From: Bdellovibrionales bacterium
GTDB taxonomy: Bacteria; Bdellovibrionota; Bdellovibrionia; Bdellovibrionales; JAUICD01
NCBI GenBank assembly: GCA_965203275.1
Contig: OZ241865.1
Location: 1,792,001 to 1,856,000 of the forward strand
DNA length: 64,000 nt
Reading direction: 5' to 3'
A program made the translations under genes and the position numbers. Below are positions 19,810 through 36,438 of this stretch, one piece after another. Below the pieces are notes generated by a model that worked only from the letters and a program-made list of their open reading frames with translations, was not told the origin of the DNA and did no database searches. Position 1 is the first letter of the stretch. Every line of letters starts with the position of its first letter.

Positions 19810-20262
19810 TATGAGTGGAATGCGGGTGCAGGCTTCCGAAGTCCTCAACCTTCGCTTGCTTTTGAGGAGCAAGCGGGTCTGCGGAAGATCTCCAGCCTGC
19901 CCCCGCCTCCCACTCATAATACTCATGCTTTTTTGAAAATTACGCAGAATCTAAAAGAGAATAAAAAAAAACAAAAAAGAACTTTTTCCTTAACATTTCA
20001 CTCAAAATGAGCCACACCTCTGGTGTGTTTTTGGGCATTGCTCTGACAGCTATCGCTGTCTAAAAAGAGCAATGCCTCAAAAAACTGCTCATTTTGAGTA
20101 GGGCGAATCTCCTTTCTTCTTGACACCATGTTAAGGAAAAAGTGCTTTTATTGCCTTAAGAGCAAGCGGGTCTGCGGAAGATCTCCAGCCTGCCTCCGCC
20201 TCCCACTCATAATATTTATATTTTTTTTGAAAATTACGCAGAATCTAAAAGAGAATAAAAAA
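19810..20262. repeat. GC-rich long hairpin (19810-19917), J-H-J unit (~19985-20139) and direct repeat of the hairpin 3' half (~20160-20262)
   Basis: ATGAGTGG/CCACTCAT, GCAGGCT/AGCCTGC and CGCTTGCT/AGCAAGCG stems; GAGCAAGCGGGTCTGCGGAAGATCTCCAGCCTGC occurs twice. Confidence 0.85.
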
Positions 20263-20265
20263 CGC

Positions 20266-20296
20266 AAAAAGCCCTCGTGGTGATGAGGGCTTTTTA
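20266..20296 (-). terminator. Rho-independent terminator (bidirectional form)
   Basis: AAAAAGCCCTC-GTGGTGAT-GAGGGCTTTTT downstream of the OMP gene. Confidence 0.8.
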
Positions 20297-20354
20297 ATTT
20301 GTAAAAGAAGAAGAAAATTATGAAAATGGTTTTTTGTTTGAATGTGGTTGTTTG

Positions 20355-21125
20355 CTAGCCAAAGAACCAACCAACACCTAATGTTACATATAAACCATTG
20401 AACTTAAGCTTTTTAGTTTTAGCATCTTCACCTGTACCTTCTCTAGCTAAGGAAGTAGCACTACAATCGGCTAGAGCAACATCACCGGTGGCTGTTTGGC
20501 ATTTTAAATCACCAAATGAAAGCAGATCATAACCTGCTTCGACTTTAGCTAAAAGATTTTGATTGATCTTATAACCTAGCTCCAAGCCTGCTTGACCGCC
20601 AATAGATTGCCATAAAAATTGCCTACTCTTAATTTCGTAATTAACATTAGTAGGAGCAATACCACTATGTGAATAGACTAGAGACTTCCAAATATCTAAA
20701 CCTACAACGGCCCCTACAAAAAACTGATCCAAATGAAATCTGTAATTCAATAAGAGAGCGACACGATGATGAGTGAATTTATATTTATCATCAGCAGAAG
20801 GAGTATCATTTCCACCTGCATCTACAGGGTCTTTTTCGCCTGTAAAGGCCAAACGATAACGGACACCTAATCCTAAGCTAGCTGCATCCATCATTTGACG
20901 ATATAAAACATCTGCCCCTAAATGAAAAGGACGATTTTTCTGTTTGGCATTAGGGATGCCTGATCCTTCACCTCTTACTTCATCAAGATTCAATTCCCCA
21001 AAATTCATACCAAAATGAGCAGAAAACTCAGCATTTCCTAAAGCTGTATCAGCTAAGCTAAAACTGCCCAGAAAAACAGCTACATACATTAAACTTTTTA
21101 TTTGTTTTAAATTGAGACTTAACAT
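20355..21125 (-). CDS. Outer-membrane beta-barrel protein, paralog 1
   Basis: Signal peptide, amphipathic beta strands, C-terminal GVGWFFG; paralog of 35695-36438. Confidence 0.8.
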   Translation of the reverse strand: MLSLNLKQIKSLMYVAVFLGSFSLADTALGNAEFSAHFGMNFGELNLDEVRGEGSGIPNAKQKNRPFHLGADVLYRQMMDAASLGLGVRYRLAFTGEKDPVDAGGNDTPSADDKYKFTHHRVALLLNYRFHLDQFFVGAVVGLDIWKSLVYSHSGIAPTNVNYEIKSRQFLWQSIGGQAGLELGYKINQNLLAKVEAGYDLLSFGDLKCQTATGDVALADCSATSLAREGTGEDAKTKKLKFNGLYVTLGVGWFFG

Positions 21126-27932: not shown

Positions 27933-28137
27933 TTTCACTAAAAGTAAACTGACTTCTGGCCACTTTCTGGCGATGACCACTTTTAGTAGGGAGGATATCT
28001 TCGTTTCTTAACCACATGTTAAGGAAACAAGATGTTCACTCCCGGGATCTGGGATCCGGCAATCAGGCATCCCGGATTCCGGAATCTGATGCCGGGTCCC
28101 AGATCCCAGATCCCGGATTTACACCATGTTAAGGAAA
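27933..28137 (+). repeat. Composite repeat: internally deleted H, J, gene-less inverted GGGATC array, J
   Basis: H deletion joins two GACC microhomologies; GGAAACAAGATGTTCACTCCCGGG is the near reverse complement of the downstream boundary of the four-helix-bundle cassette (~47220-47243). Confidence 0.88.
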
Positions 28138-28285
28138 AAAGGGCTTGATAGAAATAGTAAATTTTACCTTCTAACCCTGTAAATTCTGCTTGCTTTTAAA
28201 AAGCTTGACATGGTAATCAATCGATTATAAAATAATAAAAACACTTGTGGATTATTATAATAGAATAGATTGAGGGCAAGAGGCT

Positions 28286-28996
28286 ATGGGGGCAGATATG
28301 GCTAATCAAAACAACAAAAAGAAAAAAGAATCTGATCATACACCTGAAGCAGTGTGGAAGGCACTGAAAGAAGTTATTGCTGTGCAGAAAAATCTAGCTC
28401 AAAAAATAGACGAGACACGTCAAAATATAGACAAGGTGAGTAAAGAGACACGGCAAAGTATAGACAAAGTAAGTAAACAGACACAGCAAAATATAGACAA
28501 AGTGACAAGACAGACAGCAAATAATATTAATAAATTAAGAGGTGATTGGGATCATAGATGGGGTGATTTTGTAGAGATTCTTATTTCTGACAATGTAGAA
28601 AGGCTATTTGAAGATTATGGGATCATCAAAGGCAAGGTAGAAACTGTCAATAAAAGAGTTTATCGCTCTGCGAATGGTATCACTCTGTTTGAGTTTGATT
28701 CTATCACCATCAATGGTGACAAAGTCATTATAACAGAAGCTAAAAGGACAATGACAAAAACAAAAGTAAAAAAATTTATTAAAAAAGTACAAAGTTTTCT
28801 GGCTATCAAAGACAATGAATTTTCCAATAAAAAAGTTTACATTGCTATAGGTTATTTAAAAGCAGACAATGAGAAGCTCCTTATCAAATATGCAGAGAGA
28901 CAGGGATTATTTGTGATTAAGGCAGTTGGTGACAGTGCTAAACTTGTGAATTCACCTCAAACTTTCAAACCCAAGCAAGTGAACTTAAATTTGTAA
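28286..28996 (+). CDS. Coiled-coil protein with C-terminal PD-(D/E)XK nuclease-like domain
   Basis: 11-aa repeats ETRQNIDKVSK; WGDFVE...EFDSITINGDKVIITEAK. Confidence 0.7.
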   Translation: MGADMANQNNKKKKESDHTPEAVWKALKEVIAVQKNLAQKIDETRQNIDKVSKETRQSIDKVSKQTQQNIDKVTRQTANNINKLRGDWDHRWGDFVEILISDNVERLFEDYGIIKGKVETVNKRVYRSANGITLFEFDSITINGDKVIITEAKRTMTKTKVKKFIKKVQSFLAIKDNEFSNKKVYIAIGYLKADNEKLLIKYAERQGLFVIKAVGDSAKLVNSPQTFKPKQVNLNL

Positions 28997-35449: not shown

Positions 35450-35478
35450 AAAAGCCCTCGTGGTGATGAGGGCTTTTT
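35450..35478. terminator. Bidirectional terminator between sucC and OMP paralog 2
   Basis: Same hairpin as 20266-20296. Confidence 0.8.
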
Positions 35479-35535
35479 AATTTATAAAAGAAGAAGAAAA
35501 TTATGAAAATGGTTTTTTGTTTGAGTGTGGTTGTT

Positions 35536-35692
35536 GATAGAAGAACTTTTTCCTTAACATCGTGTTAAAAAACAAGGAGATCCTTCCTACTAAAAGTAAA
35601 CGGACTTTTGAGGCATTGCTCTTTTTAGACAGCGATAGCTGTCAGAGCAATGCCCAAAAGCAACCAGAGGTTGGTTTACTTTTAGTGAAACA
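35536..35692 (-). mobile_element. 157-bp J-H repeat unit inserted behind the OMP stop codon
   Basis: Absent from the homologous site after paralog 1 (GGTTGTT|TGCTAG at 20346-20358). Confidence 0.85.
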
Positions 35693-35694
35693 TG

Positions 35695-36438
35695 CTAGCC
35701 AAAGAACCAACCAACACCTAATGTTACATATAAACCATTGAACTTAAGCTTTTTAGTTTTGAAATCTTCACCTTCACCTGAATCTTCGGCAGGTACAAAC
35801 ACTTCTTCTGCACATTGGGTTTCCTCTGTCCAATTAGAGGTAGTACATTTTAAATCACCAAATGAAAGTAGATCATAACCTGCTTCGACTTTAGCTAAAA
35901 GATTTTGATTGATCTTATAACCTAGCTCTAAACCTGCCTGACCGCCAATGGACTGCCATAAAAATTGACTGCTTTTTAATTTAGTAGTATTATTATCCTG
36001 AGAAAAATTCAAAGACTTCCAAATATCCAAACCTAAGGCAACCCCTACAAAAAACTGATCCAAATGAAATCTATAATTAAGTAAAAGGGCCACCCGATGA
36101 TGAGTGAATTTATATTTATCCGTAACAGTTTCGATTTCAGTTACATAGTCTTTTTCACCTGTAAAGGCCAAACGATAGCGAACACCTAAACCTAAACTAG
36201 CTGCATCCATCATTTGACGATACAGAACATCTGCCCCTAAATGAAAAGGACGATTTTTTTGGTCGCGCCAAGTAGTAGGTTGAGTGACATCTTGAAGGTT
36301 CAATTCCTGCCCAAAATTCATACCAAAATGAGCAGAAATCTCAGCATTCCCTAAAGCCGTATCAGCTAAGCTAAAACTGCCCAGAAAAACAGCTACGTAC
36401 ATTAAACTTTTTATTTGTTTTAAATTGAGACTTAACAT
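35695..36438 (-). CDS. Outer-membrane beta-barrel protein, paralog 2
   Basis: Identical signal peptide and conserved strands versus 20355-21125; divergent loop segments. Confidence 0.8.
   Translation of the reverse strand: MLSLNLKQIKSLMYVAVFLGSFSLADTALGNAEISAHFGMNFGQELNLQDVTQPTTWRDQKNRPFHLGADVLYRQMMDAASLGLGVRYRLAFTGEKDYVTEIETVTDKYKFTHHRVALLLNYRFHLDQFFVGVALGLDIWKSLNFSQDNNTTKLKSSQFLWQSIGGQAGLELGYKINQNLLAKVEAGYDLLSFGDLKCTTSNWTEETQCAEEVFVPAEDSGEGEDFKTKKLKFNGLYVTLGVGWFFG

Follow-up and report, generated by a model that had tools for sequence, protein, structure and literature searches.

Two paralogous outer-membrane-protein (OMP) genes lie within the window, by which is meant the whole 64-kb stretch of DNA that was analysed, and one of them carries behind its stop codon a 157-bp block that is absent from the corresponding position of the other. 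The question raised by this locus is whether the block was gained as a discrete unit and, if so, by what kind of reaction. The genome concerned (G000) is a single closed contig of 2.57 Mb with 35% G+C, and the block is one complete unit of an abundant, structured repeat, the J-H family. The proteins encoded by the two genes are 79% identical, and the Pfam OMP_b-brl match of paralog 2 has an E value of 7.6e-6, under the curated cut-off. Coordinates of the relevant features are collected in Table 1.

Table 1. Features of the filled and empty sites, of the inserted J-H unit and of the internal control (window positions, except where prefixed with C1).
Feature	Position	Strand	Remarks
OMP paralog 1 (256 aa, empty state)	20355..21125	-	ORF; stop codon 20355-20357
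OMP paralog 2 (247 aa, beta-barrel, filled state)	35695..36438	-	ORF; stop codon 35695-35697
Empty site GGTTGTT/TGCTAG	20346..20358	.	Joint between 20352 and 20353
Inserted block, 157 bp, one complete J-H unit	35536..35692	+	GATAGAAGAAC...AGTGAAACA; exact indel against the joint at 20352/20353
Terminator-like hairpin, paralog 1	20265..20296	-	Shared 3' flank
Terminator-like hairpin, paralog 2	35450..35477	-	Downstream of the inserted unit
Purine-rich leader, variable left end, GATAGAAGAACTT	35536..35548	+	Low information content; near-identical pairs diverge here
J arm, two small predicted hairpins (35548-35572, 35575-35588)	35548..35588	+	Minimum-energy fold
H module, three-armed: P1 35589-35601 with 35674-35686; P3 35605-35660; P2 35661-35673	35589..35686	+	Fold
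Right tail GAAACA and right terminus	35687..35692	+	Family similarity ends here
Separate J-H unit past the terminator of paralog 1, opposite orientation	19996..20148	-	nhmmer 154.3 bits
IS256-type copies	C1:1919472-1920872; C1:214258-215663; 7 more		

The original prediction held that the two genes have their 3' UTR and terminator in common and that paralog 2 has exactly 157 extra base pairs, with no base duplicated or lost. The former was borne out by alignment of the flanks and by the hairpins found behind both genes. The left flank is 97.7% identical over 86 nt, with two mismatches (35450-35535 versus 20267-20352), while for the right flank identity is 100% over 68 nt and 94% over 87 nt. 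Refined pairwise alignment upheld the latter, there being no microhomology at either end of the 157-nt insert (0/0), the placement of which is therefore unambiguous. The block starts 2 nt past the stop codon of paralog 2 and, since it lies between stop codon and terminator, would be transcribed in the 3' UTR as the antisense strand; paralogs with and without a unit in a transcribed 3' UTR would provide a natural test of any effect on mRNA stability. Contigs of 78 nt spanning the filled left junction (35495-35572) at 100% identity were recovered from runs X1 and X2, which belong to two studies, indicating that the filled junction did not arise during assembly. Nor is coincidence a concern, because both ends of the indel fall within ∼2 nt of the ends of a family of several hundred copies. 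The empty site itself has a weak fold (-7.7 kcal/mol, z -2.0, 9 of 200 shuffles as good), in which the joint lies within a weak 4-bp stem. The separate unit past the terminator of paralog 1 shares its P3 hairpin sequence with the inserted unit but has other P1 alleles; it forms an inverted repeat with that unit, being 86% complementary to 35537-35662.

Copies of the unit were enumerated in G000 by blastn, which returned 678 non-overlapping copies of at least 130 nt (350 plus, 328 minus) that are 65-94% identical to the inserted unit, and by an nhmmer profile, which returned 1311 family matches, 767 of them near-complete. The inserted block is the best nhmmer match in the window (model positions 5-156, 169.8 bits), and the family as a whole fills several percent of this small genome. 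Rfam 15 gave no match at gathering score in the whole 64-kb window, and a literature search found no paper on this repeat family or on the repeats of this genome. Folded as single-stranded DNA, the inserted unit has a predicted energy of -40.9 kcal/mol (z -10.6, 0 of 200 shuffles as good), the predicted layout comprising a J arm of 52 nt, which contains small hairpins, and after it the three-armed H hairpin of 105 nt. The J arm core CCTTAACAT is invariant in 99 copies, and all 35 consensus pairs show 90-100% standard pairing in 80 sampled distinct copies, most of them by way of two or three alternative pair types, with covariation in all three arms. Among five related genomes, units are present in G000, G001 and G004 and absent from G002 and G003.

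Several further properties of the units concern their relation to neighbouring genes. The P2 hairpin and the T-run that follows it (35661-35683, with the same position in other units) score as terminator-like on the unit's own strand, and J-H units might accordingly stop transcription in one orientation. Repeat clusters are polar, with unique DNA to the right of 138 of the 767 near-complete units and to the left of 32, and the unit points towards the gene in 168 of the 237 crude genes that have one within 300 nt upstream. One solitary unit (C1:342358-342515) ends 2-3 nt before the apparent start of a tRNA gene (GGGACATAGCTCAGTTGGTAGAGC).

The extent of the unit was examined with a conservation profile from 99 non-redundant close copies and with an end test on 627 pairs of units, at least 96% identical and situated at different loci. 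Information content amounts to 0.02-0.19 bits in the left flank, 0.12-0.96 bits at positions 1-11 and 1.4-2.0 bits at most positions from 12 onwards, and is at background again past about position 159. Similarity between paired units stops within -4 to +4 of the model end on the right in 383 of 483 informative pairs, which indicates a sharp right terminus that agrees with the OMP joint. On the left, similarity stops at unit positions 10-17 in 302 of 467 informative pairs and reaches -4 to +5 of position 1 in just 78. As judged from these sequence comparisons, the part conserved from copy to copy is a core of ∼144 nt, to which a variable purine-rich leader is added. The closest J elsewhere in the genome is 98% identical over positions 8-58, with one of 51 positions differing outside the leader and, by eye, 4 of 11 leader bases differing, and it carries another H; the closest H is 99% identical (one mismatch in 103) at two loci, both of which have other J arms. 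J and H therefore reassort between copies. No copy in the genome has both the J and the H of the inserted unit, and hence no donor can be named. The proposal that the block defines a minimal mobile unit thus stands for the OMP event, in which a whole J-H block is concerned, but is too simple in general, given that similarity mostly starts at position 10-17 and that the two modules reassort.

An internal control for the absence of a target duplication was provided by a Mutator/IS256-type insertion sequence of 1406 bp (Pfam E 2.5e-33), of which the genome has nine copies. Comparison of one copy with a paralogous empty site (C1:1916866-1916873) revealed a duplicated GCGTAG(+), 6-8 bp in length. 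Since a DDE element in the same genome leaves a duplication of this size, the same method would have seen one at the J-H unit. The ends of the IS256-type element (CGAGC...GCTCG) are unrelated to those of the J-H unit. The non-DDE mechanism put forward in the original prediction is plausible rather than proven, the argument for it being the missing duplication. Eukaryotic DDE transposons that insert without target duplication exist, at least in so far as the available descriptions of the Spy elements extend (PMC4122938, PMC4482050), and the lack of a duplication does not, for this reason, decide by itself against DDE chemistry.

It seems probable, on the evidence of the pair, that a cut-and-join reaction without a staggered cut placed the 157-bp block, as a discrete unit, in the 3' UTR of paralog 2. 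One complete J-H unit would have entered the 3' UTR as a block and would have been joined with no base gained or lost. The substrate may have been folded single-stranded DNA, with the variable purine-rich leader of 10-13 nt presumably made or altered at each insertion and the ∼144-nt core and sharp right end presumably copied faithfully; the direction of the event would be gain and not loss. Both staggered-cut (DDE) insertion and recombination across a shared core appear, from the bases at the joint, to be ruled out for the OMP event.

Loss in place of gain would require that the unit once stood behind both paralogs, by duplication or gene conversion, and was then precisely excised from paralog 1, so that the pair would record a footprint-free mobile-element reaction in reverse. 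Flanks that are nearly identical up to the indel, as if conversion had once spanned the whole tract, are consistent with such a history, as is the lack of a donor copy with both this J and this H, and REPINs have been caught excising in population reads, according to the part of the published account available (PMC3116915). The sister species G001 speaks against it. This genome has four tandem OMP paralogs, 53-60% identical in protein, and in none of the four does a unit adjoin the stop codon; the stop codon is followed by ∼45 nt and then a terminator in two of the four, and one paralog has an H-like element ∼125 nt downstream. A filled state that is ancestral in outgroup paralogs, which the original prediction named as the observation that would turn the polarity round, was accordingly not seen in these genes, whose UTRs are not alignable base by base with those of G000. 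Similarly, H and J diverge from their closest copies (98-99% identity) to an extent similar to the 1.3% divergence of the flanks, and, as both are near-identical to copies elsewhere, the inserted unit fits a young copy.

Junctions were also sought in Logan contigs of runs X1, X2 and X3. A joint that skips the 157 bp was present in one contig from each run at 90% likeness and in none at 99%, and is best explained as paralog 1, which has a single mismatch situated 10 nt from the joint and would be expected to drop out at 99% likeness. Neither an excised form of paralog 2 nor a circle junction of the inserted unit was found in the Logan contigs. In metagenome contigs, an exact 26-nt pattern from the shared right flank matched no stretch, and a search for relatives of the OMP protein gave 142 pattern matches, none of which was confirmed. 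Overall, gain is clearly favoured over precise excision from paralog 1, which is unlikely.

The original prediction also called for further empty and filled pairs, and these were sought genome-wide by three routes, namely flank-pair BLAST of the 678 copies, self-comparison of the genome, and examination of the low-copy flanks of 820 repeat blocks. After refinement, flank-pair BLAST left 173 pairs; the flank filter retained 32, and apart from the OMP pair these proved to be comparisons of non-orthologous repeat copies. The OMP pair itself escaped megablast self-comparison at 88% identity, because its right-hand match was filtered out. By the block-flank method, a single one of the 820 blocks, that of the OMP pair, gave a clean filled/empty pair in low-copy DNA, and no second one like it was returned; many unit-sized differences within clusters are most readily explained by recombination between adjacent or overlapping units. 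The OMP pair is therefore the one place at which a whole unit is seen against ordinary low-copy DNA. It fixes the ends of the unit to the base, shows that no duplication was made and that the variable leader moves together with the rest, and is the best-defined junction of the J-H family so far.

A second low-copy pair (G000 949xxx versus 2037xxx) is not a clean insertion, a unit of 145 nt having replaced ∼20 nt. The replacement lies in the promoter region of coiled-coil genes, a family to which window gene 28298 belongs, and three paralogs keep the ∼20 nt with a ribosome-binding site. Loci of this family are at window 28068-28297 and at C1:2037767, 2038860, 949592, 2039967, 2031769 and 948155; in three paralogs the 5' leader is plain and contains a ribosome-binding site, and in four there are units ending ...AGTGAAGGAAGAAT right before the ATG. 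As the unit abuts the ATG in these four, its tail replaces the native ribosome-binding site.

Other insertion sites were informative with respect to target preference. J-H units of 159-162 nt are situated in the P3 loop of other H units, at the sites GCCAGC-CTT/ATT and TAAGAAGG, with microhomology of 0 on either side; empty P3 loops read ATT in 80 of 96 cases and filled loops mostly CTT, GGT or AGT, and these copies may descend from a few events. Units with leaders of the GAT(A/G) type sit in unrelated contexts, including P3 loops, positions behind H tails and another repeated gene context. Low-copy DNA flanks 13 units on both sides, and the ∼5 clear solitary units among them have the same extent as the OMP unit; by eye, with ends placed to ± ∼2 nt, direct repeats of at least 3 nt are lacking at the ends of all of these. 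The base preceding the unit is T in 41, C in 20 and A in 2 of 63 sites, many of which are not independent, and no fixed target of 4-5 nt was found to the left of the unit, where TGTT, CCTT, CATT, AAGT, CGGT, TGGT and others occur. Counts of unit orientation by presumed replichore were 258/262 and 92/66, the cumulative GC skew being weak and asymmetric and the positions of origin and terminus consequently uncertain. A different element of 152-153 nt (TGAGCTGGATCTTCAATTT...GCGAATGGTAA) occupies several sites within H units, flanked by ..ACTTT and TGGGCA and with 2 nt (TG) ambiguous, for example at C1:230971-231122, 103878-104029, 2552170-2552921 and others, and makes up a second family of small inserts, the target of which is the repeat itself.

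The enzyme responsible was approached by a census of candidate genes in G000. Matches to Y1_Tnp (Y1 HUH) numbered 0 among six candidates scored, in a search whose control was positive in 6 of 14 known genomes. IS110 likewise gave 0 matches and RVT_1 (reverse transcriptase) 0 matches and 0 candidates, G001 having three of the latter; Y2_Tnp also gave 0 matches, in a search whose control was silent. A zinc ribbon of the Cas12f/TnpB type was found only in one frame of 1365 aa, which from its size we take to be Cas12a, and GIY-YIG only in one frame of 653 aa, presumably UvrC given its size. With none of the enzyme classes known for duplication-free insertion found in G000, the J-H family could be inactive now. 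The OMP pair, together with the missing HUH, IS110 and reverse transcriptase genes, sharpens the question of which enzyme moves structured repeats.

One answer, which is speculative and must be rated as rather improbable, is that the enzyme moving J-H units belongs to none of the known duplication-free transposase classes. It would paste a core of ∼144 nt, folded and single-stranded, into accessible T-rich positions, hairpin loops among them; the 3' end would be sharp, and the purine-rich leader on the 5' side would be newly made. Within G000, the expanded Rpn-like PD-(D/E)XK family (PDDEXK_2, Transposase_31) would be the most tangible candidate. It is represented at 55 loci, fragments counted, for example at C1:105340-106398, 945999-947093, 1135808-1137037 and 888861-889379. 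A unit lies within 300 nt upstream of 37 of these loci and is co-oriented with 32 of the 37, to be set against a background in which 237 of 1693 crude genes have an upstream unit, 168 of them co-oriented; many of the 55, moreover, are fragments situated in DNA rich in repeats. Matches to PDDEXK_2 (14 in G000, 5 in G001, 1 in G004 and none in G002 or G003) have the same distribution as the units. Transposase_31 is abundant in G003, a genome without units, and no unit was found within 1.5 kb of eight Rpn-like loci from G001, G003 and G004. The family is a lead only, the upstream enrichment being partly background. The Rpn proteins of E. coli are described, in the portions of the literature available, as recombination-promoting nucleases and as toxic antiphage nucleases (PMC5350276, PMC10400941).

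It is somewhat more doubtful still that the unit is a non-autonomous, PATE- or REPIN-like element of the IS200/IS605 type that a Y1 HUH transposase mobilises in trans, as single-stranded DNA. The missing target duplication, the sharp right end and a hairpin near each end of the unit (on the left the J hairpin, at 12 nt, and on the right the foot of P1 in H, at 6 nt) would all suit such an element, and one Y1_Tnp gene (E 8e-40, 164 aa, G001:C1:1839420-1839914), which is intact and lies next to a serine recombinase gene, is present in the sister species G001. However, that gene is a lone copy of ordinary IS200-like type; its hairpins are unrelated, no J-H unit adjoins it, and none of the six candidates in the closed genome of G000 matches Y1_Tnp. 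Moreover, the four nucleotides to the left of the unit vary (TGTT, CCTT, CATT, AAGT, CGGT) and the counts by presumed replichore, the limits of which are uncertain, gave no sign of a strand bias.

That no dedicated enzyme was involved, the indel having arisen by replication slippage, hairpin-stimulated deletion, ectopic gene conversion or unequal recombination between repeats, is very unlikely for the OMP site, even though many length differences in clusters look like recombination between neighbouring or overlapping units and modules reassort freely. Slippage and recombination need homology at the joint, whereas the OMP joint has none (0/0) and the empty site contains neither short direct repeats nor a remnant of a repeat; furthermore, its flanks are low-copy DNA without a repeat module, and the indel matches the unit ends to the base.

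Site-specific recombinases exchange strands across a shared core, of 2 bp for the serine and 6-8 bp for the tyrosine enzymes. Integration of a circular or folded intermediate by such a recombinase can be set aside as the least credible reading: these enzymes leave no duplication, and G000 has two tyrosine recombinases (307 and 187 aa) and five small serine recombinase paralogs (C1:2152835, 1902272, 1034807, 1747885 and 1170348), but a core would show as ambiguous overlap at the joint, where the overlap is 0, the serine genes are found behind ankyrin-repeat genes and are not flanked by J-H units, and the 187-aa tyrosine recombinase (present in G001 and G002, absent from G004) does not follow the units among relatives (present in G001 and G004, absent from G002). 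The serine recombinase paralogs are of ∼240 aa, three intact and two broken, with three of the five right behind ankyrin-repeat genes and four of the five sharing an upstream inverted repeat, AAGCTGTGT...ACACAGCTT; the set may constitute an inversion or shuffling system for effector genes. The two enzyme classes named in the original prediction, HUH and tyrosine recombinase, thus find little support, no Y1 HUH gene having been found in G000 and no base at the joint being ambiguous.

Insertion of a discrete J-H unit by cut-and-join may be compared with the known systems of small, structured repeats. The closest likeness is perhaps to be seen in REPIN/REP-BIME elements with RAYT (Y1 HUH), which, so far as the available descriptions go, are also non-coding, intergenic and hairpin-forming and occur in hundreds of copies and in mosaic clusters (PMC3116915, PMC2817692, PMC3337134). 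As with REPINs in the same partial account, units are gained or lost as discrete blocks (PMC3116915), and persistence in relatives, in this case J-H units in G001 and G004, suggests vertical inheritance. Unlike REPINs, which are described there as a palindrome pair of 20-40 nt, the J-H unit is 157 nt in length and has a three-way junction and a directional J arm; its stems are interchangeable, covarying alleles, its left leader is variable, and no RAYT/Y1 gene was found in G000. PATEs, the gene-less IS200/IS605 derivatives of Haloquadratum walsbyi, resemble J-H units, to the extent of the published description available, in having no transposase gene, no duplication and a hairpin near each end (PMC3119063). 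They differ, on the same description, in that J-H units have no fixed target tetranucleotide, no autonomous IS200/IS605 partner in G000, a far more elaborate fold and no strand bias detected, the replichores being uncertain. Membership of the J-H family in the PATE or REPIN-RAYT groups consequently fails on two counts: no Y1 enzyme was found in G000, and the target tetranucleotide is not fixed.

Classical bacterial MITEs, of which Correia elements are an example, provide a further comparison. In common with DDE-derived MITEs, as presented in the part of a review available (PMC3184786), J-H units are 100-200 bp in length, abundant, and situated near gene ends and in transcribed UTRs. Unlike these, they have no terminal inverted repeats, the left end GATAGAAG... 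not being the complement of the right end ...GTGAAACA, and, with neither terminal inverted repeats nor a duplication, the J-H unit is not a DDE-type MITE. In contrast with cassettes of site-specific recombinases (integron attC, IMEX, IS607-like), there is no crossover core common to the ends of the insert and the flanks, and, as opposed to retro-elements such as group II introns and retrons, no reverse transcriptase was found in G000. While REP-, REPIN- and PATE-like repeats were already known, what is new here is the clean low-copy pair, the duplication control provided by the IS256-type element and the variability of the first 10-13 bases of the unit.
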